From a virus, in IMG/VR virus record IMGVR_UViG_3300035158_000183, positions 96,001 through 160,000 of that record: 64,000 bases of DNA, one strand, 5' to 3'. This document shows, one piece after another, positions 4,014 through 61,777 of this stretch. The notes under the pieces are model-generated. The model did no database searches. It was not told the DNA's origin and was given only the letters and a program-made list of their open reading frames with translations. Both the position numbers and the translations under genes were made by a program. Position 1 is the first letter of the stretch, and every line of letters starts with the position of its first letter.

Positions 4014-4454
4014 CTACGCTCCTATGAAATATACGTTATTGTCCGAATAGTTATACAGGAAATGTCTAATAAGTACTTCGGAACTAGCATTTCTGGCTGT
4101 TGGGGCAACGCTTATTGAGGCCCGTACTAGTAATTTATCACGAGCCACAGGCATATACTGTAACTTTATGTCCTGTGTATGCACAAAGCCGTTCCGAGCA
4201 AAAGCAGCCGTAATACGAGTCTTGATTAGCTCTGCTGTCTGTTCATCATTAGGTTCTCCCACAAAATCTCTGAGATTGGCTCCGACATCCTCAAACACCC
4301 TCCAGTCACCCTGGTCGGCCTCTACCCGAGTCTTCATCTCCTGTAACAATGACCTGAGAGGATCGTGCTGGGTGTCCATGAGATCACCCTCGCTGATAAA
4401 ATAGTCTCCCCGGGATGTCCAGAGCATGTCTATCTTATCGTATATACGAGGCAT
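4014..4454 (-). CDS. Baseplate wedge/sheath initiator (gp25-like)
   Basis: 146 aa, GDW...DVGANLRDFVGEPN motif, immediately upstream of baseplate J. Confidence 0.7.
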   Translation of the reverse strand: MPRIYDKIDMLWTSRGDYFISEGDLMDTQHDPLRSLLQEMKTRVEADQGDWRVFEDVGANLRDFVGEPNDEQTAELIKTRITAAFARNGFVHTQDIKLQYMPVARDKLLVRASISVAPTARNASSEVLIRHFLYNYSDNNVYFIGA

Positions 4455-4462
4455 CTAATCAC

Positions 4463-4798
4463 CTAGCCTAAGGCTTGAAAGCTTGTGAGGAGACCTATGA
4501 AGACAGCCGCATCCTTCATGAGACTGGCGAACTGTCTCACAGGCGGGTTGATCATCATGACTGGAGTTGGCGTAGCCATAGTAGACGGTAATGACAGCAT
4601 AATCTCATTATTCATGGTCCACAGGCTGCTGAATCTCATCTGTCCCGAGCCTGCCACAAGGCTCATTGGGCCGCCTATCGTAGTGCCCTTGGTATCAGTC
4701 TGGACGTAATTCTCCTTATTGCCATGCATACGCACTGACCTAGAGTCAATCACCTGACCGGCTTCTGCTTCTGGCGAGGCTTTTATGTGTCTTGTCAT
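4463..4798 (-). CDS. Hypothetical baseplate protein (possible spike-related)
   Basis: 111 aa with SD GGAG; position in baseplate cluster. Confidence 0.45.
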   Translation of the reverse strand: MTRHIKASPEAEAGQVIDSRSVRMHGNKENYVQTDTKGTTIGGPMSLVAGSGQMRFSSLWTMNNEIMLSLPSTMATPTPVMMINPPVRQFASLMKDAAVFIGLLTSFQALG

Positions 4799-4815
4799 GG
4801 ACTTCTCCTACGTAA

Positions 4816-5247
4816 TTATACTATACCACTACCTGGAGGGGCGAATGCTGCCCCCTGGATGGCCACTTGATTAGTCTGTTCAGTGATTTCTTTATCATCC
4901 GTCAGCGGTCTAACTATTGAAGCGGTGCCACGATTGACCGAGTCACCCTTATAATCTATCCGACAAACGAATTTGCCCACCAGCTCATCCGGAGGGCCAT
5001 AGTTGGCTGCCAAGAACATAGGATGCTCCTTGAGCGGGATCGGTTTGGTAGTCAGCTGGGGCTTGCCGTCTGAGCCAATAATTTCCAGTATTACTGTATA
5101 AACCCCTTGGCCCTTCTTGCGGCCCACAACTTCCTTGATAATACCATACTTTATACGAGACTTGGATATTCGTGTCTCGTCCTGCTTGTTGCCAATCTTG
5201 TTAAGGATGGCCCCCATCGGGGTATTCCCGCCAACTTCTCTAGGCAT
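4816..5247 (-). CDS. Hypothetical baseplate protein (possible OB-fold spike N-terminal-like)
   Basis: 143 aa, KYGIIKEV...YTVILEI beta pattern; follows the hub-like gene. Confidence 0.45.
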   Translation of the reverse strand: MPREVGGNTPMGAILNKIGNKQDETRISKSRIKYGIIKEVVGRKKGQGVYTVILEIIGSDGKPQLTTKPIPLKEHPMFLAANYGPPDELVGKFVCRIDYKGDSVNRGTASIVRPLTDDKEITEQTNQVAIQGAAFAPPGSGIV

Positions 5248-5257
5248 AACCTACTCC

Positions 5258-11728: not shown

Positions 11729-11734
11729 TTCTTG

Positions 11735-14700: not shown

Positions 14701-16228
14701 CCTCAGCGAGAAAGTTTCCTTCGACCATTCCTCTCTGTAGGGCCTGCTTCTCGTTAGCAGTCTTGGCATAGAACGTTACTAGCTGAGGAGCAGTATAAGC
14801 CTCGGCTGCCGTAGCCGCATGTCCACCGTGTACCATTCTCTGATAGGCTGGGCCCTGAATCTTGCGTTCTAACCGGCTATAGTATTCGCCAAAAGTACCA
14901 GCGAATGGTGTGGCCTTAGCCTTAGCTTCCGCCGTGACACCCCACTCTCCCCTAATAAACTGGAAAGGTTGTTGTTCAGTACCCACTAAACGGCCTAGTG
15001 GGCCATATAGCTCTTCGGCAGGTGTCATACGCTCGTGCACGCCTGCCATAAATACACCTCTGGCTACGGGATCCGGACCGCCAACAGGCCACAACTGCCG
15101 TCCGCCTGCTGCAGCTTCCTCCACCATCTTTCCGCGTAATTCTTCAGTCATTTTGCCTGCATACACTGCTTGCTGGCCCAACATCCGTGCTCTAGCCCTG
15201 CCTCCAGAAGGCAGCACTGCTTCAGGCAAGGACCAAACTGCCATTGCTCTGTGTGATGCGTCCCGGTCATGAAGAGCTTCTATGATTCGATGATTTATCT
15301 CAATTACTGTGTTCTTAACACCTGTAGTGGTCTTCTGTCTGGATATGGCGTTGGCCAGAAGATCTACGTACTCATCAGCATAGTTGCGTATAGCTCCTGT
15401 CTCACCATAGGCACGCCGGGTTCTATATCTGGCTGTGAGTCGCTGTCCGCCATAGGCCATCCCTGCACCCTCTAGCGGAATATTTATAGCTTCTCTTCCG
15501 ATAGCCGCTCTTAGTACAGGAACTTCAGCAAACTTACCGCCACCTAGTGCTTCCCGGACCATCTCCACACCACGCCAGTCTATCTCCCCGCCAGCTTTGC
15601 GCATAGCTTCATCCAGCCTCTCCTGTATGGCCACGGCTTTGGGAAAGTCTTGAATAGGTTTTACTGGTCTGTCAATGGTCGTGCCCACAAACTCGCCCGG
15701 TGATATGGCTGCCTCCGCTCTGGCCGCCCATGGAGTGCGTCCGCCTAGAGTGGGATCTGCTGTTAGAGACCGCAGGCGCCCAGCAAAGACATCAGCATCA
15801 CCCAGCAAATCCTGAATCTCAGCAGCAGCTTGCCCATAAGCCTTCTTGTATGTAGACTGGCCCATGATATTTTGGAAAGCTGTGTAAGCTTCCTCTTCAC
15901 TATAACGGCCACCTGCCATAATAGCTTCATAGGCGGCAGCGGCTATATCATGCTGCAGCACCTTGCCGCCTGGGCCAATCTTGGATAGCTCGTGAATAGC
16001 CAGATCTGATGTGTCCACCGTGCTCTTGATGGTGCGTTGCAGGTTGAACCCACCCATACCAGGTACTCTTGCCGCTACTTCGCCAGCAATATCTCTGGGC
16101 ATTGTAGTGAAAAGACCCCTGAGAGCGGGATGGGCCCGGTACAAACCTACGCCAGCACCTCCCAGCAGAGCTGCACCTGCAGTAAACCCCCAGAGTGGTG
16201 AACGTTCTTGATAATTGTTATCTGGCAT
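11735..16228 (-). CDS. Putative virion-packaged single-chain RNA polymerase (double-psi beta-barrel type)
   Basis: 1497 aa; GVWRHP (RHP at 13100-13108) followed by MKGDFDKD (DFDKD at 12932-12946), resembling the R.P...DFDGD catalytic barrel; hydrophobic Gly/Ala segments near both termini. Confidence 0.55.
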   Translation of the reverse strand: MPDNNYQERSPLWGFTAGAALLGGAGVGLYRAHPALRGLFTTMPRDIAGEVAARVPGMGGFNLQRTIKSTVDTSDLAIHELSKIGPGGKVLQHDIAAAAYEAIMAGGRYSEEEAYTAFQNIMGQSTYKKAYGQAAAEIQDLLGDADVFAGRLRSLTADPTLGGRTPWAARAEAAISPGEFVGTTIDRPVKPIQDFPKAVAIQERLDEAMRKAGGEIDWRGVEMVREALGGGKFAEVPVLRAAIGREAINIPLEGAGMAYGGQRLTARYRTRRAYGETGAIRNYADEYVDLLANAISRQKTTTGVKNTVIEINHRIIEALHDRDASHRAMAVWSLPEAVLPSGGRARARMLGQQAVYAGKMTEELRGKMVEEAAAGGRQLWPVGGPDPVARGVFMAGVHERMTPAEELYGPLGRLVGTEQQPFQFIRGEWGVTAEAKAKATPFAGTFGEYYSRLERKIQGPAYQRMVHGGHAATAAEAYTAPQLVTFYAKTANEKQALQRGMVEGNFLAEELNKRMFLEEGLIAEQAADMMEYERVVAKKINLREGLRVNEEILAKLKGARIGEVREFATPIGQEGFIGVERHTGAPLWAEAQAGGEAAEVIAAELTDDHAATVYVRERHRIGRDKWWKFFSEDIKFMGRAQTQKELAGMLGVAGAPTEIGGQAVQAMWSGKLVQRNLMAQLTQQMEAMSLITAGKIDAGTLAGSEAVARSFLEDPARIMGVSSLNAATADRAVFDLQRRMTRTAKRFGFTAEEMGLTFGLMDQGVADSLGIGQAVADSTGVMGLMKGRLGDLAAEGGAGGMATIEQAGMRLLAMKGAEGQALAAELGTRAYGKTDLVAANRMMGTVLGEEGLVERWTGDIPTAEKTLAQMTQEDLRRAQGRYVPLGQDIEALGGAKRLYVPGFEEAPELMQQFRAQGGRMIDTDVMQELQNLRYQLARGAATEEIEAAAASLRSKVVAATERQATIAKGKLLGTRYLTGVRQTAEQTAQAAGAFRVSPRTAQRMMDELLENAKTDDQRELLKFQKEMLLKKNQAVVAGVWRHPLTGPESFQFARFQVDRNLADELIASPYQEGSLTIGGVQRQVDISPMVGMKGDFDKDAFSIAAISDRDTFNRLTRKMDSEIAEGYTSYLFNHYAMKDLIKSQAAKLGGVKGIAEMTRREAMMQGAANLTTAKIATPQVNIALQKAKLGLQYAAPEKYRPMAELFWHLEEAAIGGKHGAYQSQMYQDIAHAIQQQDASGMESVLKRIMGEEDRVVSGSITNPVTGREGARTLKFSPRQAAEDIISGVRAVGADVDVAVKEAQLAKGRVPDDLNTLIHMYYKRRTGSLDVAQAVMQRQAYGQPSLTENATRALRMAKTRTSAVFGALRHARAPLMIGASLAAGVMLAAPSVSGSLSAPKEGAAGGRNLGDDYIGPAAGQGMSPPTARIMQSPKVYDMSGMRSASRASIRIPTPDANQMGQNFMRQAGDLGGRTRIRTVDNREALSPQRLANRIHERL

Positions 16229-19200
16229 TACCTAACTCCCATCCTCTTGTGGGTTTCTCGCACTAATTCATCTCTAGAGTCAACGATTTCAATATCATAC
16301 TCATCCGGTCCTTTAGTAGCCAGACCACACCGCATCACCCTGCTGCCACTACCTCCATGGACCTTGGCTAGTGTTTCAGCATTCAGCTTGTGTATCATAA
16401 CATCTTCTAGCTCAGCACGGGCTTGCATATCTCGTATAAGGTCTTCATTAATATACGGTTTTCTAGCTAGGGCTCGCTTCCGAGCACCCCAAAGATCGAA
16501 CTCATGATGGTCGAGTCCGGCCATCTGCACATACTGAAGCTTAACATCCTCCATATCAACTGATGGACTATTATGATAGATTCCAATTGGAGAACAATAC
16601 ATGTGCTGGTCTTCAACTTCAAAATCGAGCACCGTGCCTTCGTATTGGGATCTTTCAATGGTCTCTACTCGATAAGCTATAAAGTTTTCACCTACTATAG
16701 CTGAAAGAGAAGAGCTAAGTGACTCTACTGCATATTGGGCTTTACCATTTCTCTTCTTTGGCCCATGCAAACTAGCAGGAATACCTTGTGCCTCATATAG
16801 CCGTTTGGCCATATAGCATAATTGTCTATTAGCAAGAATAAGTCTCCCCCGCTCATCTTTAGAAGCATCCCCTGTATTAAGGCCATCTAATAAAGCTGCT
16901 TGGCTCTTCTGAGTAATATTCTCTAACCAAGAAGGAGAATATTTTTGATCACAATATCTACCTACCCAATGATTAATAAGCCAACCGAAAATACTATTTG
17001 CTACTACTAAATATGCGCTTTCACTCTTAGGCTTCTTCTTAAATCTGATGATGCTATCTAATCCAAATTTATCTTTAATGATTTTTTGAGCTAATTCTAG
17101 AATTGGGACTTCATCTATATGCGCTGTAAACTGTACTCCTCTCATTCTGTCTCCAACAGCCCATGTGTTCCCTCCTGCTAAGTAATAGCCAATTAACCAA
17201 CAAGTAGCTTCATCTAATTTGATAAATCTATTGATTGGTTTAATTCTTCCTGTCTTCGGACGTAAAGTATCATCAAGTATCAGAGTATTGTTTGGAAAAC
17301 AATTAAGCTTACCAATATCTATTACTGGATCTTCATCAGTATGTTTTAGTAAAGGAATAGGCAAGTACGTATTTGTTGTAAGTTTACCTATAGGCATCCA
17401 TTTAGCAGAATAAGATTCATAATGCTTTGTAGTACAGAAATTACATTTCCACATTGTTGTTGCATGCGTGCATACAGATTCAGGCTTTAAATTGTATTTG
17501 CATCGTTCAGTCTGAATCCCAAGCACAATATGATTCTCTGTTGCTGCCATACAATAAACACTGTTGTGATGAGTTTTAACAATTATAATATCTTCATTTG
17601 TCTGTCTCTCAAAAACTTGTTTCACTTGGTTTTCTCCTTGCAAGGTAGTTAAAGACTGATCTAATTTTACGTCACTTGCATGGAGAATTCTACCATCTGA
17701 TGTTAAGATATCTTGTTTCGGAGGAACACACCACCCTAGCCAGTCTGCGCCTGGCAAGGAGTGGGTTTTGAAGTATTCCTTAGCCTTAAGTTCGCGTATC
17801 CATTCATCAAATGGGATCTTTCCATCTGTCTCGGCTCGCCACTGCTCTTCCATCTCCGGTGTGGCCCCGAAGCCTTCGGTCTTGCGCATAAGAGCAGTCG
17901 TAATTAGTGTCTGCTCATCTTCCTTGGTGGCTATACCCGCCTGCTCCTTAGCTCTAGCAGCTCCTGCTTCCTGTTGTAACCACTTGGACATATACAGCCG
18001 TTGTTCATTCTCAGGTATCAGGGACAGTATCTCCTCGCGCTCTTCTGGTGATCTGGCACCTGTGAAAGCAGCAAAGAAGTCACGCTCTCTGCGCGGCAAG
18101 GCCCTCATAGCAGCCACTGGTGACCCGAAGACGTCCAGCCCGAACATGGTCCGCTGCTGGAGTTCCTGTTCCTCCCTCACATCTGACCACCTATTATTGT
18201 GGCGCGCAATACGTTCTGCACGCTCTGCCTTCACCCAATCCAGCATATCGAAATATTCATTAATGTCACGACGTTGGCGAATTTGTTCAGGAATTCTGTT
18301 GAAACCTATAGCGTGTAGTGCCATGTCGGCTGCTGGCTGTAGAAAGTTCTCCACAGGACGATTCCAAAATGCTGCCTGGGTGCCAATAGCCTCTGAAGCT
18401 ATGTACTCCTCAATGGCTGATCGTTGTCTGATAAGCTTGGATGCCGGAGACATAGGCGTTAGATACTCCATAGGGGTCTCAATACCATGCAAGATAGTCT
18501 CGCTCATGCGTCCAGCCAAACGCTCAGCAGGAGTAAATCTTAGCTGCTCGAATTCATCGCGTAGCTCCTTGGCCTCGGCATACTTCTGCTCCGCCAGGAC
18601 TTGCCCGTAGTCCTGGTCGCCCATCATGGCTACAGCCTTCATGCGGCTGCCGCGCTTGGTCACATCATAGCGGCGGGACTCCATCTGAGGAGCCTTGATA
18701 GTAATCTTCTGCCCCTCAAAGTGCTCAGTGGCGAAGTCCATTGCCTTCTGCATGTTGGTGATGGCGCCCACGCCCTGCAGCTCGATAACCATGTCGCCGA
18801 ATTCTGCTGCCTTGATACGACGTGGATCTAAGACCTCTGTGACGGTGATATCCCTGGTGCCTAGTAGCTCTGGTCTGAAGCGATACTCAGTTATCTTGCG
18901 GCGCTGCTTCCTGGACTTGACCTGTTCCTCAACAGTTCTGACTAGCTGCTTATCTTGATCCGATAGCCTACCAAAGTTTCGCTTAGCCTTCTGTAGCGTC
19001 CACTTATATTCGTCTGACCACATAGCCACATCGCCCAGGATTTTAAGGCGGTGGACGAGTGGATACTCCTCTGGGTGGACCCCAGCTACCTCAGGATGCA
19101 GAGCCTCGTACCCAGGACCCGGCAGTCTGATTTCAGCTTCCTTGATCTTCTGGAATGGATTGCCATACTTCAGATCTAAGAAGTAGTCTTCGGGCATCCA

Positions 19201-34021: not shown

Positions 34022-35290
34022 TTATAGACCGCTGATAGCTGTCGTTACGTCCAGCTCATCCAGAGAACCAGCAGAAGAAATCGTTGGGTGTACTGGAAGT
34101 GCGATTTCGTTTGCCTTGATAGGTACGTTTCGCATCACGCCGACGGCGAGACCATCTTCGTACACTGCAAATGCATAACGCTCTTTCAGTTTCACCTTCA
34201 TGATATCCGCATTCATATCTTCCCACTGATCCGTGCTGACATCCTCATCCACAACCAGCGCACCGAGGTTTGCCGAGTCGAAGATCATGATGTCGCATGT
34301 GTGGTTGTCCTCGTTGAACGGAACGAATGGACTTACCAGCACACGCAGCGGGTACGGGAAGTAGTTCGGAATCACTGCTGGGCTGTTGAGGTTCTGGTCG
34401 ATCTGATTCGCATTCTCCGGATCAGATGCTGTCGCACCAGCCGCATTCTCCGGCGGTGTGTACTGACCATAGCCACCCTGCATACCCATCTTGCTCTGGT
34501 TCGCAGAGTTCCATGGGAGACCCTGTTTCGCCATGTTATGGCGCTGGAACCACTGACCGTTGCCTGTATTCTTAGCGATAGTCTGCAGGAACGGATCAAT
34601 CATCCACATGGACCATGCCAGTGGGTGAAGCAGAATAGTATCAGGAGTATAGCCCTGCATCATGATATGGGAATACCCCTTCAGAAGGTCTTCCATGCGG
34701 CAGGAGCCGTTGCCAGCACCTGTCATGGAGCGCCCTGTGCAGGTCCCATACATAGATTCCGTTGGGTTCTTGTTGTCGAACAGTGATACGCCCATCCCAG
34801 AGATGAAGTCCATACCCTTCTTCTCCTTATGACGGTCCAGACCACGACGGCCGGCTCTGACGTGCATGTTCATGATGTCATACTGGGAGTACTTCTGCAT
34901 TTCCTCAGTAATCTTAAACATAATACCCGTCTTACCAACGTTGATGGTCACGGAACCAGGTGCTACGTTCAGGCTCTGTTCTGGATAGGTCTGACCTTCT
35001 GCAAGGTCGAAAGCTACCATGGCGCCCATTGCCGGGAACGTAATTCTGGCCGCTGGGGTGTAGGCGATACGATCTAGAAGAGACGGGATGATGAGCATCG
35101 GCTCTACCGGCTCACGCACGATCTCTTCAATAACCTTCGGCATCCAAATCGCTGCCTGGGGAGTTGCCAGGAGATCCCTGAACTCCACCTTGGACTGCGT
35201 AGGAACGTTGAACCCGAAGTTGAACCAGGTGTCCCTATACAGTTTGTATTCGTCGCCGAAGGCCTTGGCTGAATCAAATTTCTTACTCAT
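34022..35290 (-). CDS. Major capsid protein (HK97 fold)
   Basis: 422 aa; MPKVIEEIVREPVEP, KTGIMFKITEEM..YSQYD, PDTILLHP, KLKERY; follows protease/decoration genes; terminator downstream. Confidence 0.88.
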   Translation of the reverse strand: MSKKFDSAKAFGDEYKLYRDTWFNFGFNVPTQSKVEFRDLLATPQAAIWMPKVIEEIVREPVEPMLIIPSLLDRIAYTPAARITFPAMGAMVAFDLAEGQTYPEQSLNVAPGSVTINVGKTGIMFKITEEMQKYSQYDIMNMHVRAGRRGLDRHKEKKGMDFISGMGVSLFDNKNPTESMYGTCTGRSMTGAGNGSCRMEDLLKGYSHIMMQGYTPDTILLHPLAWSMWMIDPFLQTIAKNTGNGQWFQRHNMAKQGLPWNSANQSKMGMQGGYGQYTPPENAAGATASDPENANQIDQNLNSPAVIPNYFPYPLRVLVSPFVPFNEDNHTCDIMIFDSANLGALVVDEDVSTDQWEDMNADIMKVKLKERYAFAVYEDGLAVGVMRNVPIKANEIALPVHPTISSAGSLDELDVTTAISGL

Positions 35291-42138: not shown

Positions 42139-44215
42139 TCGTGCTGCCTCTCTTCTCGAAGTCGGCTATCCAGCTACGAACCTGCTCTAGCTCGTCCTGA
42201 GCGACGTTCTTAAAGCAATCTTTGATAATTGTACCTGATTCCACAAACTTTTGCTTGTCAGCAGGCTTCTTTGGAGCACTAATAGTTTCTCCTGGTACTG
42301 TACCCGGGACCACTGCTTCCGGAACCTGCTCAACACCGCTAGGTGTAGTCTCCAGCGTCGGAGTGTGATCTTGCACATCAGGACCAGCTTGCCGACCTGG
42401 GGGGATAACCGCTACGGTCCCGTCATCCTGCACCTCAAATTGTGTGGCAGAGTGGCGGTTTAACTCGCCCTCAAGTATAAATTTCATTTGACTCGGATTG
42501 AAATTTGTGTGGGTTCCACACTCGAGACCATTCTCAGACACAGCCTTAATCATAGCCTTGACTAGCATAATTAGCTGTATCAGTCTCGATTTGAGCATTG
42601 TGGTATCGGCCTTCTTGGTCATCCACCCCAGATCGGTGCCGAGCAAATCATGAACCATTTGGGTGACATAGGTGAACCAGTCCCTGACATACTGCACTGC
42701 GCCCTGTAGTATATTACGTAAGTGTACAATGGAGGCCACAATAGGTGAGGTGACGTAGTATTCTGTAGCCGGAATAGGTTTGGCCTGCTTCTCAGGTGGG
42801 TGGTAGCCCGCCTCAAACTCACCACCTACCATATACTTCTCAGAGTTAGGTATATCGTCCTTACTCCAGCGGGTGCCGTCATGCTGCTCATACCTGAGCG
42901 GAGGAGGTATATACTGTCTCTTGGCTCGTTCCTGGGCACGCATTTCCTTCCACCGCTCATCACGCTCTCTGCGCTCTTCTTCGGTCAGGGCTGGGTCCCA
43001 CTCCTCATCAATCTCCAGAGCAGCTAGCTCTGTTTCCTCCAACGGATAGTCAGGGATAGTGGGGTTGTATTTTTGCGAGTCAGGTGTTCTAAAGACTTCT
43101 GCTTCCCAGTTACCCCAGACACCAGCCTTTGGATCCAGAGCACCAGGCTCTATAATACCTTTCTCTGGGTCGCCCAGACCTGCTGTACCGCCTATACCCA
43201 TAGGATTAGCGATATTAACATGCCCAGGCCCAGCCACACCTACATCCAGATCGATATTACCCCCGACTTGAGCTAGCGGTATACGAGCACTCTGAGCTAT
43301 AAGGATAGTCTCATTGATATGGTCAATGACACAGATAATAGGACCCAAGATGAGCTGTACCCACTTGTCAAGCCAGGCTGACAGAGCATCCAGGAATGGA
43401 CTCAGTATGGGGCCTACCAATTGTATAATGAAGTCAATATTGAATTTAACATCCAGATTGAGCTTGGCCAGATATTGTGTGAGCAGAGCCAAAATGGCCA
43501 GGAGATCCTGAGGACACAGGTGCTTGAGAAGATTGAGCAGCTCACAAATATCTACAAATGCACCAGGGTCCTTGAACAGAGACTTTACCTTATCCAGGAT
43601 ATCGGTACGTACCTTAATATTGAGAGCATGGATTTCCAGCAAGTCACCGTCAGGCAGCAAGTTACCCGGGTCTAGAAGCCTGTCAAAACAGGGCACACAC
43701 TCGGTAAGCAGCCTGCCTATATTTTCAGCTCTAGTCTTAGCAGACACATCTGAGCCAAATATCTTGGTGTAGTCAAAGTCTTCCTGGCTCTGGCGGAGCC
43801 CACTCATGAAAGCATCTGGGCTATCCATGGCTGTATCCCAGTAATCTAGCCTCTTCTCACTCTTCTTCTTAGCTTCTGTGTAGAAGGGATCAGTCTCAGG
43901 TGCTGCTCCAGTTACCTGGTGCATACCAGGATAGTACCGCATCTGCAGCCTGGTGCGCTCTGCAAAGTTCCTAGTAGAGTACACATCACGATAGTGATAC
44001 GCCTTGGCATAGTCTTCGCGCGTCCAGTTGGCAGCATCTAGCTCAAAAGTCTTGATAATTATTGCATAATCCTGCTGCGCAAACGTATTGTCAGGATTTA
44101 CATATACACCAAACTCGCCTGTCTCGGCCTTACCCTTGGTCCAATCGGGTGTGGCCTTGAAAGCAGCCTCAGAAGAGGTCTCAACAGGTATATATTCATC
44201 CTGAGTAAATGACAT
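42131..44215 (-). CDS. Hypothetical virion-associated protein
   Basis: 694 aa ORF coupled to portal; central hydrophobic helical region. Confidence 0.7.
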   Translation of the reverse strand: MSFTQDEYIPVETSSEAAFKATPDWTKGKAETGEFGVYVNPDNTFAQQDYAIIIKTFELDAANWTREDYAKAYHYRDVYSTRNFAERTRLQMRYYPGMHQVTGAAPETDPFYTEAKKKSEKRLDYWDTAMDSPDAFMSGLRQSQEDFDYTKIFGSDVSAKTRAENIGRLLTECVPCFDRLLDPGNLLPDGDLLEIHALNIKVRTDILDKVKSLFKDPGAFVDICELLNLLKHLCPQDLLAILALLTQYLAKLNLDVKFNIDFIIQLVGPILSPFLDALSAWLDKWVQLILGPIICVIDHINETILIAQSARIPLAQVGGNIDLDVGVAGPGHVNIANPMGIGGTAGLGDPEKGIIEPGALDPKAGVWGNWEAEVFRTPDSQKYNPTIPDYPLEETELAALEIDEEWDPALTEEERRERDERWKEMRAQERAKRQYIPPPLRYEQHDGTRWSKDDIPNSEKYMVGGEFEAGYHPPEKQAKPIPATEYYVTSPIVASIVHLRNILQGAVQYVRDWFTYVTQMVHDLLGTDLGWMTKKADTTMLKSRLIQLIMLVKAMIKAVSENGLECGTHTNFNPSQMKFILEGELNRHSATQFEVQDDGTVAVIPPGRQAGPDVQDHTPTLETTPSGVEQVPEAVVPGTVPGETISAPKKPADKQKFVESGTIIKDCFKNVAQDELEQVRSWIADFEKRGSTNG

Positions 44216-44576: not shown

Positions 44577-44996
44577 CTACAGGTCCTCCGGATTGGGTAT
44601 ATTGCTGTTGGCTATCTTGGCCATCTCAGATACGCATGTCTGGTACATCTGGAATGTGATTTCCCGACCATCACCACCGAACACACGCTTGACAGCCTCA
44701 ATGATGCGTAACTGGTTATCTGGGTTCAGAGTAATCTTAACATTCTTGCAACGGTCACTAATCTCGTCCTCAAGCTGTTTGCACTCTTCAATAATCTTGC
44801 CGTAACCATCAAAGACTTCCTTCGCTTTGTCCTGACGAAAAGCCAGAGTAGTACGGTCCTTTGTCTTGTCTTCCTCTCTTATATATGGTCGCAGAACATC
44901 AGCTGGCTCCGGAGGCACCCACTTAGTTGCACTAGTAGCATCCAGTATAGAGTGGTCTCTGGGCGATAGCATCCTGCGAAGTTCGGCTTCATTCAT
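44577..44996 (-). CDS. Hypothetical protein
   Basis: 139 aa, coupled in operon. Confidence 0.65.
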   Translation of the reverse strand: MNEAELRRMLSPRDHSILDATSATKWVPPEPADVLRPYIREEDKTKDRTTLAFRQDKAKEVFDGYGKIIEECKQLEDEISDRCKNVKITLNPDNQLRIIEAVKRVFGGDGREITFQMYQTCVSEMAKIANSNIPNPEDL

Positions 44997-45469: not shown

Positions 45470-47422
45470 CTAGATATTGGTACGCGAAGGTCGTTGTTTA
45501 TGTACATTAGCGCGGCGACGCTTTCTTTGCAACCATTCAGCTTTACGTTGTGCTTCCATATCGCTTTCCCAGCCAACCCGATTGGTCTTGGCCACATCAG
45601 CAGCACTACTAATTCTACCAGGCATCATGTATGATTGCCTACTGTTAGCTGGGATTTCTTCCATACGGCGATCTTCTGGACGATGGATCTCTGGTCTAGC
45701 CTGTTGCTGGTCAGCTATTCGGTTCTCCCGGTCCTGTAGAGACTCTGGCCTCTGAACAGTACGTGGATCTGGAACCGCTATTACTGTAGTGATAAACTTA
45801 GAGGCATGTAGGTCATCGAACTCCAGGTGGAATGCCACCAGAGCTAGGTTGAGTGCATCTAGCCGGTGATCCAGAACCTTAGGTTCACGGAGGCCAAAAA
45901 CCTGTACCTTAGTGGGCGTAACACGCTCTACAATATAGTTTCGTAGCTGCTTCTCCAAGACATGGTCATGAGAGGAAATAATAATTCTCTCCTGCTCAAA
46001 AGCCCTCACGGAAGCACTGACCATGAACGGTTTGGCTGGCTTCTTGATCTTCTCATGGGTGATAGGGTCACGCACCTGCAGAGATGCCCCGGAGTCATAT
46101 TTCTTCAGTATATCCAGTAACTTAGCAGTCTGTAAGTCCCCGCCCTTCCTGCGCTCTTTGTAAGCAGTCTGTCTCAATAGCTCATAGTTAGTACTCCCGC
46201 CTCCGGCATCAATATACACAAACGACGGTCGCCACTTCCTATTCATTTCCAGAAGCTTTTGCACACCAGTGAGCTGTGTGAACTCAGTCTTAGGCACCAG
46301 CACTGCATCTACTATCTGGAATTTGCCAGTGAAAGTATTATGCCCTACGACTACTATCTCCGTACCATGCTGCTCGTTCCAGTCAGTGCCAATACAGTAC
46401 CTCCATGTAGATGACCTCTTGTGTTCGCCGTACTGGTAGTCCGTAAGAGCCGTATCGATATACTCAGGTTTATAGACGCCCGCTTCCGAAGAACCCCACT
46501 CTGCCAAGTACTCATGGGTCCAGTCCTCCTCAGTGAAAGAGGAGCGTTCCATCTCCACATTCTTCCAGTGGGGCAGCACCTTGTAGTTATGATGGTACTC
46601 CTTATAGTGTGGGTTTCCAGTACAGAACTTATAGTATGGTGTCTGAAAGCCAGATGGAGTTGAGAATCCTACCAGTGCAGTATCAGGAGATGTCTGCAAC
46701 AGCGGGATGACAGCGCCAGTAATAGCCTTCTCGTCAATATAGTCCATCTCCTCCAGGTACAATCTGTCAGCATCCTGTCCTCGGATAGAGACACCCTCAG
46801 ATTTGCCCTTGGTGCCGGCAGCAAAACCACGGAGTCTTGCACCATTGGTAAGCTTGATCTCATAGTATGGCGCAGATACATCACGCACTACCATATTAGC
46901 TAACTCTGGATTGCTATGGATAAACGCCCGGACTCTGGTGATAATTTCTTCAGTATGGGATTTTTGTGGACCCGCTACCACTATCTTGATATTGGGTTCG
47001 GTAAATAGGTAGTAACATATCTCAATGCAGATCAGGTCGGTTTTGCCAGTACGTCGAGCAGTCCGGAGGACTTTACGCCTGGAGGTACAGCGCAAAATGC
47101 GTCCCTGGTACCATCTGGCTATCCATGGATCGTCTGTCGGAAGCTTAAGGTACCGCGCAGCCCACTTCACAATATCAGCTACTGCTTCCAGCTCCGCCCA
47201 TGCCTCATCCGTAAAGGCAGTTCTCATATTTGGGTCTAGTTGGTTCCTGGGTATCCCTGTACAGGGAACTAGAAACTTACCACGAGCAGCCTTGCCATGC
47301 TCATCGACAAACTTCTCATATTTCTTAAGCTGTTTACGGACACAGTCGTGGCATTGATCTTCGACCTCATCCAGGACGAAGGGTAGCTTAAACTTCCGCA
47401 GATCCGTGCATGCATCTTCCAT
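45470..47422 (-). CDS. terL: Terminase large subunit
   Basis: WYQ, Walker A RRTGKT, IRGQDAD, Walker B LYLEEMD, motif III FSTP, RNase H-like GTDWN...YIDAGG...DHRLDAL. Confidence 0.92.
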   Translation of the reverse strand: MEDACTDLRKFKLPFVLDEVEDQCHDCVRKQLKKYEKFVDEHGKAARGKFLVPCTGIPRNQLDPNMRTAFTDEAWAELEAVADIVKWAARYLKLPTDDPWIARWYQGRILRCTSRRKVLRTARRTGKTDLICIEICYYLFTEPNIKIVVAGPQKSHTEEIITRVRAFIHSNPELANMVVRDVSAPYYEIKLTNGARLRGFAAGTKGKSEGVSIRGQDADRLYLEEMDYIDEKAITGAVIPLLQTSPDTALVGFSTPSGFQTPYYKFCTGNPHYKEYHHNYKVLPHWKNVEMERSSFTEEDWTHEYLAEWGSSEAGVYKPEYIDTALTDYQYGEHKRSSTWRYCIGTDWNEQHGTEIVVVGHNTFTGKFQIVDAVLVPKTEFTQLTGVQKLLEMNRKWRPSFVYIDAGGGSTNYELLRQTAYKERRKGGDLQTAKLLDILKKYDSGASLQVRDPITHEKIKKPAKPFMVSASVRAFEQERIIISSHDHVLEKQLRNYIVERVTPTKVQVFGLREPKVLDHRLDALNLALVAFHLEFDDLHASKFITTVIAVPDPRTVQRPESLQDRENRIADQQQARPEIHRPEDRRMEEIPANSRQSYMMPGRISSAADVAKTNRVGWESDMEAQRKAEWLQRKRRRANVHKQRPSRTNI

Positions 47423-56555: not shown

Positions 56556-57338
56556 CTATGGGTCTACAGAATGATTTATGGCGGTAGGTCTGCGGACCTT
56601 GATCCTGCGGCTGTGGAGGAGGATCTCGTGTATCTTATTTACCTTGTCGCTGGTGTTATCAACCTTGGACTTCTGGGACTTGAGGGCACCCTTGATCTCT
56701 GTGATATCCTTGTTGTAGACCTTCTGCTGGACATACTTATCCTCGACATCCTTCTTGGCCTCTTCAGTGGCGAAATGATCCTTCTCAACGACATACTCCC
56801 TGAGGTCGGAGTGGGCCTTGCTGGCCCAGACTGCGGCACCCACACAGAGTGCCACAATGGTGATCACTGCCCCTATGGGGATAGCCTTGGTGGCCCTGCC
56901 ATTTATAGGAGCCGAGGGCGGGTATGACTTCTGTTGTACTGCATACCTGATGGACCTCTCCAGATCATAGCTGGTCAGCCTGGGCTTATGGAGATAATCA
57001 GCCGCCCCAGCCCTGAGGAGCTGTGTATCAATTGGCTGATGTTCATTGCCTGTCATCACGATTAGGGGCACCTTCCATCCATTTCTGGAGGCTTCTTCCA
57101 TGAGGTTATCCCCGTTTTGTCGGGAGAGTCGGTTATCTACGAGGCAGGCATCATACTGTTTTGTGGCAAGGGCGATCTTGGCAGCGGAGTAGGTACTGAC
57201 CCAGTCCGCCTTGAAGAATCGGCCATACACCTCCGTGAGCATGTCACGGGTCTTGTGGAAATCAGGTTCGGAATCTTCTAGTATAAGGACCCTGGTGATC
57301 TCAGAATCTGCCAGGGGGAAATCAGTATCTTCAGGCAT
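56556..57338 (-). CDS. Receiver (REC) domain fused to a TM helix and coiled coil
   Basis: VLILED, CLVD (phospho-Asp), IVMTG, ADYLHKP; then IPIGAVITIVALCVGAAVWA and ITEIKGALKSQKSKVD..SDKVNKIHEIL. Confidence 0.8.
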   Translation of the reverse strand: MPEDTDFPLADSEITRVLILEDSEPDFHKTRDMLTEVYGRFFKADWVSTYSAAKIALATKQYDACLVDNRLSRQNGDNLMEEASRNGWKVPLIVMTGNEHQPIDTQLLRAGAADYLHKPRLTSYDLERSIRYAVQQKSYPPSAPINGRATKAIPIGAVITIVALCVGAAVWASKAHSDLREYVVEKDHFATEEAKKDVEDKYVQQKVYNKDITEIKGALKSQKSKVDNTSDKVNKIHEILLHSRRIKVRRPTAINHSVDP

Positions 57339-57339
57339 A

Positions 57340-58480
57340 TAGATATCTCCTATTAGGTGTAGAGGTTGTATACCCTGATTGTATCATAAATTATGCAGTA
57401 TAGCCGGAATGGGGCCTTCAGTGGGGTGTGTTTCGGCGGGTCCGGAGAAGTCAAGGCCATATGGGGTAGATTTTGAGAAAAAATATATTTCATATTTCGC
57501 AATGTGAAATCCTGTATATGGAAATGAATACAGATATTTGTATTGGATATTGATTTGGAGTCCATATGGAACCCAAAATGAACATTCCGAGTGAATACCT
57601 AGTATGTGTGGGTGGTGGTAGGGGCCACAACCTGCGTTCGGAGCCCACGGGGTGGTCTCGTGGGACCGAGTTCTGTCTTCATCCACCCTGGATGGATGAT
57701 TGACTGAACACGCTGCGGATGGTCTGCAGCACTGTGTCAGACAGTATTCTGACAGCTCTCTCAGCGAGGAGATATCCACTCCCCGAGCCTACTGAGAAGA
57801 GATAATTACATGGTACTGAACAGCAGAGTCAGTACCAGTAGGATTTAAAACCTGTGGATTACTACTTCTTCTACTCTGATACACTCACCAGTCTGGCATC
57901 ACTGAAAGGTTGTGTAATTCAACCTGTGGTGTACATCAGCGTCATATCACTATATGTGATAGGTGTACTACCATCAGTGCTGTATATCAGATACTACATA
58001 TCACTGTAGATATACATTAAGCTCTGAAATAAGTAGGAGATATATGTATATCCGTCCCTGAGAAGGAACAGTTAGATATGTACTGCCATACTGACTGGTG
58101 GTTATATCCCATATAGCTGGGTCAGTAATGCGTAGTAGTGGGCGCATGAACGACAGCTATCCTACCCCAGCTGGTGTGAGGGGAACAGCACATAGGAACA
58201 GCAGTGGTCCAGGGACACTGCCTAGTACGGTGCTCAGTACCGCACACCAGAGTACTCGATCTATGACTAGCCTCTAGTAGGTGTTGTGTAACCGAAGATG
58301 CACAGCACAGTGTACACATACACAGATAGGTTAATTAATAAACACTGACCTACGATGTACACACTACTACGCTAGTCATAAATCCACCCCTCTATCATGC
58401 CCATGTGCCTGGTATACATGGGCAGCATAGATGGATGGATATGCAAGGCAAACCAAGAAAAATCCTGCAACGGATTTGGT
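57340..58480. other. Non-coding divergence region between the morphogenesis arm and early-type genes (candidate origin, terminus or control region)
   Basis: No credible ORF; AT-rich patch ~57470-57580; many short palindromes; gene strand switches here. Confidence 0.55.
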
Positions 58481-58487
58481 AAACAAA

Positions 58488-58510
58488 GCCCTAACGGGCA
58501 AAGGAGGAAG
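58488..58510 (+). promoter_or_regulatory. GCCC-TAAC-GGGC hairpin plus SD
   Basis: Same hairpin as at 58927 and 59287, immediately before AAGGAGG and ATG 58513. Confidence 0.75.
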
Positions 58511-58512
58511 GC

Positions 58513-58839
58513 ATGAAGAAGTTCAAGATTGCATTGCTGGCACCACTGCATGGGTGGGTAACCCTGCTGGCGAAAGACGCCCAGACCGCTCTCGACGGCA
58601 TCCACGACATGACCGGCTGCAAGGTCAAGGTCATGGAGGTAACTCCGCTCTGCAAGTGCTCTGACGAAGAGCAGCAGGCAGCAGAACAGGCCAAAGGCCT
58701 CGAAGCGGTCATCCTGGAACGCAACACTTGGCAGCCCGTAACTGCCGAGAACTACCAGGAGATCATGGCACAGATGACCGGGAGGGCCCTCAAGAAGATC
58801 GCAAAGCACATTAGCCGCCTGGACGACCTAGACAAGTAA
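58513..58839 (+). CDS. Hypothetical early protein
   Basis: 108 aa, strong SD, GC3-biased codons. Confidence 0.75.
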   Translation: MKKFKIALLAPLHGWVTLLAKDAQTALDGIHDMTGCKVKVMEVTPLCKCSDEEQQAAEQAKGLEAVILERNTWQPVTAENYQEIMAQMTGRALKKIAKHISRLDDLDK

Positions 58840-58870
58840 CCATGAAGACCCTCTAGTCTCAACAGCCGAC

Positions 58871-58938
58871 AGGAGTGGGGTACTAAGCCTCTGCAGCAAG
58901 GTGCAATTCCTTGTGCTCCTATAACCGCCCTAACGGGC
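58871..58938 (+). ncRNA. tRNA-like structured element A plus leader hairpin
   Basis: Closing stem AGGAGT/GCTCCT, inner hairpin GGGGT/GCCTC, T-arm GCAAGG-TGCAATT-CCTTGT, 6 nt, GCCC-TAAC-GGGC. Confidence 0.65.
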
Positions 58939-58952
58939 AGGAAGGGGTCAAC

Positions 58953-59144
58953 ATGACTACCGCAGTAGAGAAAGCCATTGCCAGTGTGCTGGCAACGCTG
59001 ACCAAGGAAGAGAGGGAAGGCAATCCTACTCCTCTGGTCAATGACACCACAATCGTCCTCAACAAGATCGAGCTGATGTTGAGGCGCAAGGAAGAGGCTA
59101 TCGACGCCAAGATCGACAGCATCTGCCCCAAGCCGACCTGGTAG
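58953..59144 (+). CDS. Hypothetical early protein (63 aa)
   Basis: MTTAVEKAIASV...; start reassigned to the ATG after the SD. Confidence 0.7.
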   Translation: MTTAVEKAIASVLATLTKEEREGNPTPLVNDTTIVLNKIELMLRRKEEAIDAKIDSICPKPTW

Positions 59145-59207
59145 TACCCAACCAACCGTATCCCACCAAGCCGGTCCTCTGGGCAAGACCTAAAACTGCC
59201 CTATCTA

Positions 59208-59298
59208 TGGCACGGCACCAAGGGTTTAATTCCCTGAAGTGCACATGGCTCAAAGGTAGGTTCGAATCCTACCCGTGCCACTAACCGCCCTAACGGGC
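59208..59298 (+). ncRNA. tRNA-like structured element B plus leader hairpin
   Basis: 7-bp stem TGGCACG/CGTGCCA, inner GCAC/GTGC and AGGG/CCCT hairpin, T-arm GGTAGG-TTCGAAT-CCTACC, 6 nt, GCCC-TAAC-GGGC. Confidence 0.72.
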
Positions 59299-59313
59299 AG
59301 GAAGGAGATGGTC

Positions 59314-59520
59314 ATGAAGGCTATCAAGATCGCCATGAGAGTGGCACAGGCAATCAAGAGGGCCGAGCAGGCTCTGGTAAGGGCCCAGAACGAGGCCAAG
59401 CACATGGTGCAGGAAGCCAGCAACTGGGACAACCACAAGGCTGCAGCAGCACACGTAGCCATGGCCGACAGGAAAGTGCGGGTGGCCAAGGCCCGTCTGG
59501 CTGAAGCGAAGGCCAGGTAG
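59314..59520 (+). CDS. Hypothetical Ala-rich helical early protein (68 aa)
   Basis: MKAIKIAMRVAQ...; SD GGAG at 59304. Confidence 0.7.
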   Translation: MKAIKIAMRVAQAIKRAEQALVRAQNEAKHMVQEASNWDNHKAAAAHVAMADRKVRVAKARLAEAKAR

Positions 59521-59527
59521 TATGACG

Positions 59528-59603
59528 AGTGCAGGCAGGTGCTAGGGACTACACATCCCTACAGGGTTCGACACCCTGCTGTGCTATTGAAGCCCGCAAG
59601 GGC
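59528..59603 (+). ncRNA. tRNA-like structured element C plus leader hairpin
   Basis: Stem AGTGCAG/CTGTGCT, inner TAGGGA/TCCCTA hairpin, T-arm CAGGG-TTCGACA-CCCTG, 6 nt, GCCC-GCAA-GGGC. Confidence 0.68.
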
Positions 59604-59617
59604 AGGAAGGAGCAACC

Positions 59618-59785
59618 ATGGATTACCTGACCATGGTGATCAACAAGTATTCGGCTACACCGGAGCCGGAGAAGGATAAGGAGATTGTGCCTTATCGGGA
59701 CCGACCAACCAAACAAGCTGCCATGGAGACAACCTTGGCACAGTTCTGCTATCAGTGCGCTGAGGCAGAGAAGGAGGATGTGTAA
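59618..59785 (+). CDS. Hypothetical early protein (55 aa; not in the ORF track)
   Basis: MDYLTMVINKYSATPEPEKDKE...FCYQCAEAEKEDV; SD AAGGAG; TAATG coupling to the next gene. Confidence 0.65.
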   Translation: MDYLTMVINKYSATPEPEKDKEIVPYRDRPTKQAAMETTLAQFCYQCAEAEKEDV

Positions 59786-60090
59786 TGTCCAAGAAAACAA
59801 AACTGCTGCACAAGGTCGGCAAGGGCCTAATCAAGGCCGGGGCCGCTGTAGACTCGGCATTTGGTGCCGTAGATGCGGTGGAGAAGAAGATCGGCAGAGG
59901 CAAGATGCTCGATGACCGCATCGAAGATGGCGCCAAGTGGACCGCCAACAAAATCAAGGCTGGGTTCCATAAGGCCAAGGACGTGGTGATCGAAAGTACC
60001 ACCAAGGCCAAGGAGAAGGTCGCCAAGATCAAACCTACCAAGGTGGTAGAACCCGAGAAGGCCAAGCCGTGGTCTGTGGACCAGAGCTGA
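59785..60090 (+). CDS. Hypothetical Lys-rich early protein
   Basis: 101 aa amphipathic helical. Confidence 0.75.
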   Translation: MSKKTKLLHKVGKGLIKAGAAVDSAFGAVDAVEKKIGRGKMLDDRIEDGAKWTANKIKAGFHKAKDVVIESTTKAKEKVAKIKPTKVVEPEKAKPWSVDQS

Positions 60091-60104
60091 AATGGAGGTA
60101 AATA

Positions 60105-61178
60105 ATGTCGAAGATGTCCAACAAGGCATTGGTGGAATGGGACACTGGAACTGCAGAGAAATTCAACAGGCCTAACAAGGTCAGGAAGGAATCGAGGATG
60201 AAGGAATTCAAGGACCCGAATGTCGTACTCAACTACGACGAAGTGGCCATCAACTACGCAACTCCCTGGTGGGAGGACCGCACCACCATCCAGGAGCTGG
60301 CTGACTTCCTACAACCGCTCTTCGGCACGGAACTCTGTGCGGATATGCTCCCGCCCCAGGACATCTCTTGGTACCTCAGGGACCAGGAGACCCGCCTCTA
60401 CTGGATGCACAGGGATATGCGCGAGCTGCCCGCTAGAATCGTAGAAGCCCAGGACAAGGCCGATGAGGCCTTCGCTGCGGCTCAGGCTGCTTCTGCTGCC
60501 ATCGAGGTGGACCTCGAGGACGGAATGCCCGACCACTTCATGATTGAGGCCAAGGTAGAGTGCAAGAAGCTCTGGAACAAGGCCAAGAAGCTCCAGGCTG
60601 AGGTCGGCTACATGGAGTACTACCTGGAGCATCTGCCCCAGATAATCCTGGACACGGAGGCTGCTACCGATAGGGCTGAGTGGCGGAAGAACCAGCCTGA
60701 GGAGTACTTCAAGACTGAGGCTGACAAGGAGGAAGCGAAGCAGGAGTGGAACTTCCACTGGGCCCAGGCCAAGAGATACTGGCAGCACGTGCTTGCCTGG
60801 CTCGTTGACAACGGCGAGAGCCGCATGTCGGATGCCAAGGCCAAGATGCTGTTCCGCAGCCTGGACCACAAGCTGGCCAGGAAGGAGATAAGCTCCTGGT
60901 ATTACTACGCTATCTCCATGGAGGTGGTAAGGATCCGCAACAACAGGCAGCCCCATGCTATCTGGGAGCAGGAGCTGGACAGGCTGACTAGGTATGCTGC
61001 CGGCTGCAAAGCCAGGGCAGAGGCCGATGGCAACACCTGGGGCACTCCCATACCCAAGGAGTACGAGCCCATGGAGATGGAGTACACCTTCATGTCGGAC
61101 AGGTGCAACCTGTCTGAAGATGAGATGATCCATGCCATCGATGAGAGGGGAGCTTTCCGGAACAAATACCGGAACTAG
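60105..61178 (+). CDS. Hypothetical early protein
   Basis: 357 aa, SD GGAGG, strong GC3 bias, helical/coiled-coil. Confidence 0.8.
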   Translation: MSKMSNKALVEWDTGTAEKFNRPNKVRKESRMKEFKDPNVVLNYDEVAINYATPWWEDRTTIQELADFLQPLFGTELCADMLPPQDISWYLRDQETRLYWMHRDMRELPARIVEAQDKADEAFAAAQAASAAIEVDLEDGMPDHFMIEAKVECKKLWNKAKKLQAEVGYMEYYLEHLPQIILDTEAATDRAEWRKNQPEEYFKTEADKEEAKQEWNFHWAQAKRYWQHVLAWLVDNGESRMSDAKAKMLFRSLDHKLARKEISSWYYYAISMEVVRIRNNRQPHAIWEQELDRLTRYAAGCKARAEADGNTWGTPIPKEYEPMEMEYTFMSDRCNLSEDEMIHAIDERGAFRNKYRN

Positions 61179-61218: not shown

Positions 61219-61777
61219 CTAATGTATGTCTTGACTGATTGCTGGTTAGTGTGCGCGGCGCCAGACCGAATAAGCTTCAAGTACCCCTTCGACAAATTGG
61301 AGACTCCGTTCGGTACGGTCACCGTCTTCGACCGTAATGTCTAACTATATTCGGTATCACGCTTCGCACCAGCCCCGTCTGCGCCTGAAATACCCTGCTA
61401 ATCACGCTTCGCCTGCTTCAAATGGTAGTCGACTCCCTCGCTACGCTCGGTCAAACATCAAATCATATACTATATACGTACTGGTACGTCTTACTGTTCA
61501 CGGTATTATACAGTAATACTGTAGCCCGTAAGGGCTTACCTGTATATACTGTTATAACTGTTAACTGTATAGGGCCTTTAGGCCCTTAATGCCTTCAAGA
61601 GTATATGTAAGTGTGCGGAATAGTCGTGTTTATCGGCAACTCCAGGAAGGTAGTGGGCCCGTGGGGCCTATACTGCTTTCCCCGGAGCGCGCACTACACT
61701 CTTGAAGGTAAACCACTAAAATCATTACATTCTGCTCTTCTCATGTGGGAGAACAGGCAAAATGTATCCAACTGCCT

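Follow-up and report, generated by a model that had tools for sequence, protein, structure and literature searches.

Introduction

RNase P, RNase Z and the CCA-adding enzymes act on minihelices formed from an acceptor stem and a T arm. The small RNA mascRNA is released by RNase P and RNase Z, and is then given its CCA. In bacteriophages, the early mRNA of T7 contains RNase III processing sites, and the early RNA of SP82 is processed with a stabilizer at the 5′ end. Small intercistronic hairpins with very stable tetraloops have long been known in phage T4. The cutting of messages by the tRNA machinery is documented for mitochondria. In plant mitochondria, t-elements carrying the T-arm motif GGTTCRANYCC set the ends of mRNAs via RNase P and RNase Z (Forner et al. 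2007, PMC1920247), and the non-tRNA substrates of RNase P include phage RNAs (PMC11143913). We found no paper in the literature on tRNA-like punctuation in phage operons. Here we analyze a window of 64,000 nucleotides (bases 96001–160000) of the 174,034-bp record IMGVR_UViG_3300035158_000183, an uncultured phage. Three intergenic elements (E1, E2 and E3), lying between the first four genes of its + strand arm, have the architecture of the top half of tRNA, and each is followed by a hairpin and a Shine-Dalgarno (SD) sequence.

We consider it rather probable (about 0.55) that E1–E3 mark sites for processing by RNase P and a 3′ tRNase, being similar in kind to t-elements and originating from truncated tRNA genes. 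The three are dissimilar, evidently derived from tRNAs, contain inner arms, and are joined to a hairpin/SD leader.

The structures of the three elements

All positions are those of the window unless the genome is named, and all three elements lie on the + strand. E1 (58871–58920) is a 50-nt mimic of the top half of tRNA, in which the acceptor strands AGGAGTG and TGCTCCT flank a 19-nt core and the T arm CAAGG-TGCAATT-CCTTG. The 7-bp acceptor stem includes two G-U pairs, the inner hairpin has 5 bp and a loop of 5 nt, and the T loop is TGCAATT. E2 (59208–59280) is a tRNA-like element of 73 nt, with acceptor strands (T)GGCACGG and CCGTGCC(A) that form 7 bp, or 8 bp with the T-A pair, and a discriminator A. 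Its 40-nt core comprises a long inner arm with the loop TTTAATT, followed by a 13-nt single strand, and its T arm (GTAGG-TTCGAAT-CCTAC) is identical to that of the phage's own tRNA-Asn. E3 (59528–59585) is a tRNA-like element of 58 nt, with acceptor strands AGTGCAG and CTGTGCT (7 bp, two of them G-U) and the T arm CAGGG-TTCGACA-CCCTG. Within its 27-nt core there is a vestigial D region and a 6-bp anticodon-like arm with the loop CTACACA; the T loop is TTCGACA and there is no variable loop.

The three elements thus share a common plan, in which an acceptor-type stem of 7 bp is stacked upon a 5-bp T stem with a 7-nt loop of the tRNA type. All 36 of the 36 stem positions in the top halves are paired, with four G-U pairs, and 14 of the 15 T-loop invariants are kept. 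G53-C61, U54, C56, R57 and A58 are retained in each element, and the sole departure is G55 in E1, a nucleotide that is also present in the phage's true tRNA-Ser(GGA). The invariants of the core are gone, including the D arm, G18/G19 and the purine at position 37, which is a pyrimidine in both E2 and E3. All three lack a D arm, have no anticodon loop that could be used and do not encode CCA; an A follows the stem. Beyond the T loop they have no sequence in common. When each element is folded alone, the tRNA-like shape is both the minimum-energy and the centroid structure. The three tRNA-like folds proposed in an earlier reading of the sequence alone are therefore confirmed by sequence, folding and the scan described below, as is its statement that they lack canonical D and anticodon arms and a CCA after the stem.

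MAFFT misaligned the 5′ acceptor strands of the elements, which are too dissimilar, and an explicit descriptor was scanned in place of a covariance model. The descriptor called for an acceptor stem of 7 bp, no more than two of them G-U, sitting directly on a T stem of 5 bp, the loop T[TG]C[AG]A.. and a length of 45–95 nt. On both strands of the 174-kb genome there are 13 matches, all on the + strand, comprising 10 of the 12 true tRNAs together with E1–E3. Twenty shuffled genomes gave a total of three matches (about 0.15 per genome). The occurrence of three matches within 715 nt is non-accidental. Relaxing the descriptor to allow a mismatch or other loops added only matches at the chance level in the genome, and with it no 36–45-nt copies of such folds were found elsewhere in the genome.

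As a thermodynamic measure we took the probability of forming six acceptor and five T-stem pairs, since the energy model prefers a 6/6 over a 7/5 register. For the elements folded alone this probability is 0.56 for E1, 0.94 for E2 and 0.59 for E3, compared with 0.03–0.80 for the phage's true tRNAs. In the folding model the top-half helices of E1–E3 are thus as probable as those of the phage's own tRNAs, or more so.

Comparison with known RNA classes

The elements do not belong to a catalogued RNA class, in agreement with a check suggested by the sequence-only reading. ARAGORN in its standard mode makes no call within the window, and Rfam gives no match there at gathering thresholds. E3 is picked up by ARAGORN only in mitochondrial mode. 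All three elements fall below the 29-bit threshold of the tRNA family RF00005, for which the phage's true tRNAs score 43.6–70.4 bits. The best match of any element within the tRNA clan is that of E2 to the tRNA-Sec model, at 18.5 bits and below threshold. E3 fits the mascRNA-menRNA model (RF01684) from end to end with 31.0 bits (E = 5.7e-4 in a 1.4-kb search), and does not reach the gathering score of 42.5. E1 and E2 do not match RF01684, and E1 fits no Rfam model even at permissive thresholds. The full cloverleaf of tRNA, with D arm, anticodon arm, a score of at least 29 bits and an ARAGORN call, is found in none of the elements. The tRNA top half, a 7-bp acceptor on a 5-bp T stem with a loop of the U54-U55-C56-R57-A58 type, is found in all of them, save for G55 in E1. 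Such elements escape both tRNA finders and Rfam, and so are left as empty spacers in the annotation of phage genomes. The tRNA-like domain of transfer-messenger RNA (tmRNA), in which far-apart 5′ and 3′ ends pair around a tag ORF and pseudoknots and CCA is encoded or added, was also considered and was rejected; the genome contains no match to tmRNA, and the elements are compact at 50–73 nt.

With canonical phage tRNA genes (RF00005) the elements share strand, genome arm, the architecture of T arm and acceptor, the lack of an encoded CCA and a site before a ribosome-binding site. They differ in lacking a D arm and a valid anticodon loop, and in their length. E3 has the plan of mascRNA/MEN-beta, with a 7-bp acceptor, vestigial D region, anticodon-like arm and T arm and no variable loop. 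However, mascRNA is the product of a vertebrate nuclear long non-coding RNA, and the likeness of E3 is one of shape rather than descent.

The t-elements and the tRNA punctuation of mitochondria provide the closest parallel. They too fold like tRNAs in a non-canonical way and conserve the T arm, in a polycistronic context where true tRNAs have the same role, and the function that we propose for E1–E3 by analogy, as signals for RNase P and RNase Z, is that proposed for the t-elements. The motif GGTTCRANYCC is exact in E2, with one deviation each in E1 (GGTGCAATTCC) and E3 (GGTTCGACACC). By contrast, t-elements are organellar and their ends have been mapped experimentally, whereas E1–E3 are known from sequence alone and have no sequence homology to them. 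Nor does a tetraloop hairpin with a strong SD accompany the t-elements, as it does each of E1–E3. The resemblance to T7 and SP82 lies in the cutting of an early polycistronic phage RNA at structured intergenic sites into stable monocistronic messages; there the sites are double-stranded RNase III hairpins, and here they would be tRNA top halves.

A descriptor scan of 1.32 Mb of unrelated viral loci gave five short matches where about one is expected, including one that belongs to a true tRNA. Short tRNA-like elements in unrelated viral contigs lie at L010:8834–8889, L015:404–442 (− strand), L171:332–390, L172:6669–6727 and L058:5781–5845, and ARAGORN makes no call of those in L010, L058, L171 and L172. 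Among them are a minihelix of 39 nt, an element of 56 nt that precedes a gene and consists of acceptor, hairpin and T arm, and one of 59 nt, situated in a tRNA array, that has a D arm and no anticodon arm.

The elements probably derive from tRNA genes

The nearest relative that we found is a 197.7-kb IMG/VR genome (G001), whose TerL is 69% identical. It encodes 21 tRNAs across its own small-gene arm, and those absent from the present phage include Trp, Lys, Leu, Cys, Phe, Tyr, Val and Arg. At the head of that arm there are also a phage tmRNA (G001 43130–43478, L152:3130–3478, − strand; 71.7 bits) and an odd tRNA missed by ARAGORN (44682–44756, L152:4682–4756, − strand; 34.9 bits with RF00005).

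The acceptor stem of E1 (AGGAGTG/TGCTCCT) is identical at 13 of 14 positions to that of G001 tRNA-Trp(CCA) (AGGAGTA/TGCTCCT), and the match takes in the unusual A1-U72 and U6-G67 pairs. Among 506 non-cognate tRNA pairs from the two phages the greatest identity is 12 of 14, and for orthologous tRNAs it ranges from 5 to 14. The core of E1 bears no resemblance to that tRNA. E2 aligns best with G001 tRNA-Lys(UUU), which has a long variable arm, with a score of 58 compared with 45.2 ± 3.4 for shuffles (best of 33). The two have in common the AAGGG/CCCT anticodon stem, and their T arms differ by one compensated pair. The anticodon-like stem of E3 (AGGGA/TCCCT) is also that of G001 tRNA-Lys(UUU), with an overall score that is not significant.

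These comparisons indicate that E1–E3 descend from tRNA genes of this phage lineage. The sequence-only reading had taken stems that differ and yet remain paired as a sign of selection on RNA structure, and had held that a match to ordinary decayed tRNA genes would count against it. The pairing is indeed kept. However, given the tRNA origin, the different but paired stems mostly mirror different parents rather than fresh covariation, and the likeness of E1 to tRNA-Trp and of E2 to tRNA-Lys goes part of the way toward decayed tRNA genes.

The elements might be no more than neutral relics, in which three phage tRNA genes (one Trp-like, one Lys-like and a third of no assigned type) have lost their internal parts and are decaying, with any cleavage bringing no benefit. 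We regard this as somewhat unlikely, while it stays a serious rival. The likeness is to G001 tRNAs that this phage lacks, G001 still has genes of the tRNA type where its own early arm begins, and no conservation data point to selection on E1–E3, all of which fit simple decay. Yet the core has been lost three times while every pair of the top half and nearly every T-loop invariant was kept, and E1 has a core unlike that of its presumed parent beside its near-identical acceptor. Useless spacers are rarely kept in compact phage genomes, and the first three gaps contain exactly one element apiece, always equally far from the leader.

A further use for parts of tRNA genes is in integration, as tRNA-like fragments act as attP in some viruses (PMC8707807). 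That E1–E3 are attP-type fragments of this kind, or else functional minimalist tRNAs, is very improbable. Both acceptor strands are present, three different elements lie in tandem, no integrase is seen nearby, and the 24-nt 3′ half of E2 is not matched exactly by any of 185,579 prokaryote genomes. As minimalist tRNAs they would have to function despite not being callable as tRNAs.

True tRNAs punctuate the same arm

There are 12 true tRNA genes, all between open reading frames (ORFs) in the + strand arm, at genome positions 4454–14336 and 173936–174011 (L177:13936–14011). Eight of the 12 are followed within 10–21 nt by an SD and an ATG, and tRNA-Glu is followed by a mini-ORF of four codons (MGKG-stop). 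In two cases an ORF runs up to a tRNA or into it. This layout is a mitochondrion-like tRNA punctuation, and since the tRNAs are wedged at ORF boundaries their excision must cut these messages at gene boundaries. None of the 12 tRNA genes encodes CCA. Taken together with a CCA-adding-type enzyme encoded by the phage, this suggests that 3′ ends are made endonucleolytically, in the manner of RNase Z.

That enzyme is a class II nucleotidyltransferase with an HD domain, in the region 7991–9451 of the genome flanked by tRNA-Gly and tRNA-Thr. Its TAG stop codon (9386–9388) lies inside tRNA-Thr, and therefore excision of the tRNA would leave a message with no stop. An ATP-dependent ligase (genome 3322–4452) ends 1 nt before tRNA-Ile. 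The tRNA-rich arm also encodes a protein with a PARP catalytic domain (15642–16853) and an RNA-repair nucleotidyltransferase of the RlaP family (16987–18072). The ligase, PARP-domain and RlaP proteins are possibly an RNA-repair or counter-defence toolkit.

With such enzymes in the arm, the excised elements might themselves be the product. Stable mini-tRNA-like RNAs, perhaps tagged with CCA by the phage nucleotidyltransferase, could serve as trans-acting decoys or sponges that occupy defence nucleases directed at tRNA, modification enzymes or the arm's own RNA-repair proteins. The CCA-adding-type enzyme, the RlaP-family nucleotidyltransferase and the ligase encoded alongside are in keeping with this, as is the resemblance of the anticodon-like arm stems of E2 and E3 to that of G001 tRNA-Lys. 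But the anticodon-like loops are unlike one another and unlike genuine ones, position 37 is a pyrimidine in both E2 and E3, the loop of E1 has only 5 nt, and there is no link to a known nuclease target. We therefore think this improbable. In its more specific form, put forward in the sequence-only reading as decoys against anticodon nucleases, the idea finds no specific support, as conservation is lacking in the anticodon-like loops and they do not correspond to the target of any known nuclease.

The hairpin and Shine-Dalgarno leader

On the 3′ side of each element there is a hairpin with a GCCC-GGGC stem and a tetraloop, followed by a strong SD and a start codon. Copy 1 (58927–58955) comprises GCCC-TAAC-GGGC, AGGAAGG and the ATG at 58953; copy 2 (59287–59316) GCCC-TAAC-GGGC, AGGAAGGAG and an ATG at 59308 or 59314; and copy 3 (59592–59620) GCCC-GCAA-GGGC, with a GNRA loop, AGGAAGGAG and the ATG at 59618. 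All are on the + strand. In the window there are exactly three matches to GCCC-N4-GGGC-AGGAAGG, where 0.14 would be expected. Copies 1–3 lie 6–7 nt 3′ of an element and 7–9 nt 5′ of the ATG. Measured from the 7-bp stem, the spacer between element and hairpin is 6 nt for E1, 7 nt for E2 and 6 nt for E3, so that the constant 6 nt claimed at the outset holds for E1 and E3, whereas E2 conforms to it only when the additional T-A pair is included in its stem.

A further copy (copy 0, 58488–58515, + strand) comprises GCCC-TAAC-GGGC, AAAGGAGGAAGG and the ATG of the first + strand gene, with a hairpin of −7.3 kcal/mol. The order of element, hairpin, SD and start codon thus stands as first described, with the addition of this fourth copy that has no tRNA-like element. 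Two unrelated viral contigs have the same pattern of hairpin and SD. In G004 (L042) it occurs four to five times directly after stop codons, and in G005 (L006/L167) about eight times with loops UACG, UUCG and similar; in neither are there tRNA-like elements before the modules. Since it is present without a tRNA mimic at gene 1 and in unrelated phages, the hairpin/SD leader is a module separable from the mimics. The fixed geometry is genuine at E1–E3 but does not define the leader.

A parallel layout is described for Cluster K mycobacteriophages, in which start-associated sequences (SAS/ESAS), a short repeated motif that includes the SD, lie 5′ of a subset of start codons. An inverted repeat is sometimes found in front of them, and their role is presumed to be translational (PMC3203893). 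They differ from the module studied here in sequence and in host group, and have no tRNA-like element joined to them.

The leader might be the only functional part, as a translational operator, a boxB-like protein site, a 5′ stabilizer or a recombination cassette, with the tRNA-like elements adjacent by chance. The copy that stands by itself at gene 1, those directly after stop codons in G004 and G005 and the published analogue in Cluster K mycobacteriophages all agree with this, and copies 1 and 2 are identical over 24 nt (from TAACC to AGGAAGG) while E1 and E2 are unrelated in sequence. However, it leaves unexplained three improbable tRNA top halves at a constant offset, and as a full account it is improbable. 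It is compatible with processing at E1–E3, and not exclusive of it.

The exact hairpin/SD motif is absent from IMG/VR, and in metagenomes it occurs only in unrelated, repeated bacterial sequence. The contigs concerned (L174:4627–4645, L175:2875–2893 and L176:995–1013) contain one identical stretch, GCCCTAACGGGCAGGAAGG before an ATG, which is probably a repeated bacterial element and is otherwise dissimilar to the phage. A combined pattern of T loop, spacer and hairpin was also tried; it gave only four matches, all of them ordinary tRNAs with a chance hairpin on the 3′ side, and was set aside. In L167 (G005 40.5–46.7 kb, − strand), from an unrelated high-GC phage, there are recurrent hairpins whose stems covary around an invariant 7-nt loop, UCCCAAG, lying 10–25 nt upstream of modules of GCCC-UNCG-GGGC and SD. 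They form a second and different two-part intergenic signal.

A model for processing of the early message

We suggest that E1–E3 are truncated descendants of phage tRNA genes, in which the only retained part, the one recognized by tRNA-processing enzymes, is the 12-bp helix of acceptor and T arm with the T loop. They would be transcribed within a polycistronic message that spans genes 1 to 4 of the + strand arm. Host RNase P would cut at the 5′ edge of each element, and a 3′ tRNase would cut after the discriminator A. The latter is likely to be RNase Z, because no phage tRNA gene encodes CCA. These cuts would free the upstream cistron, and the downstream mRNA would begin about 5 nt before the G-C tetraloop hairpin and the strong SD. 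The hairpin and SD would then form a 5′ leader, acting as a stabilizer or a translational operator, and the primary transcript of gene 1 would bear the same leader.

A function is favored because the decay is one-sided, with the core lost and the top half kept in E1–E3, because tRNA punctuation already exists in the arm, because a lack of encoded CCA is combined with a CCA-adding-type enzyme, and because there is one element per gap. Of the mechanisms offered in the sequence-only reading, the cutting of a polycistronic transcript by tRNA mimics is the one best supported, although the cleavage itself we only infer.

A number of observations weigh against processing at these sites. The folding energies have a significant z-score for E2 alone (−3.4), those of E1 and E3 being −0.7 and −0.9. 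In long contexts the helix probability of E3 drops to 0.06, a value that several true tRNAs do not better. The lone leader at 58488, like those in other phages, means that the fixed geometry may be incidental, and the stems of E1, E2 and E3 may owe their differences to different parent tRNAs. Finally, homologs of the elements and of the early arm are absent from IMG/VR, metagenome contigs and phage records, with no DNA match to the region among 50,697 of the latter. The terminase relatives (G001, G002, G003, L119 and L121) have TerL proteins 56–69% identical, and the early arm has one tblastx match in G001 and none in the other four.

If the elements are cut, the phage would separate its early polycistronic transcript using the tRNA-maturation machinery of its host rather than RNase III or RNase E. 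This would also reveal a route by which such signals originate, where tRNA genes with no decoding function are kept for a processing function. The finding comes from one orphan genome with no cultured host, and its value is that of a clear, testable example and not of a demonstrated mechanism.

A wider scheme can be drawn, which we consider unlikely. The whole + strand arm of about 40 kb might be expressed in the manner of a mitochondrial genome, punctuated by the 12 tRNAs and three anticodon-less relics, with tRNA enzymes making every cut. The phage CCA-adding enzyme would tag the excised mimics, giving persistent small RNAs acting in trans, for example as sponges for tRNA-directed defence nucleases, and the hairpin/SD would cap the immediate-early messages.

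Genome setting

Within the window the head and terminase genes are on the − strand, including the major head protein (34022–35290) and TerL (45470–47422). The small-gene arm is on the + strand from 58513 and, passing over the record's end, extends to roughly position 20,000 of the genome. The AT skew reverses at 58 kb, in agreement with the switch of coding strand. The divergent arms are separated by about 950 bp with no convincing ORF (57566–58512), which contain a 9-bp hairpin (58400–58428) and a 6-bp hairpin (58461–58478) just 5′ of the first leader. Scans for sigma-70 promoters and terminators from 57300 to 60200 gave results at or near chance, with no promoter before any element.

The arm begins with ORF 1 (58513–58839, 108 aa), ORF 2 (58953–59144, 63 aa) and ORF 3 (59308–59520, 68–70 aa), all orphans with no PHROG assignment, followed by ORF 4 (59618–59785, 55 aa); all four are on the + strand. 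The sole match of ORF 1 among 5.8 billion proteins is itself, and neither it nor a neighboring ORF of 357 aa has a protein relative in that set or in IMG/VR. The first three intergenic gaps, of 113, 163 and 97 nt, are among the larger ones of this compact arm. Each contains exactly one element, which with its leader fills most of the gap. From ORF 4 onward the genes are tightly packed or overlapping, and there are no further elements.

Further along the arm, an A/T-rich, repeat-like gap (61524–61589) contains another hairpin, GCCC-GTAA-GGGC, and a hairpin AGGGCC-TTT-AGGCCCT adjoins the ATG at 61589. These hairpins may mark a further boundary between transcription units.

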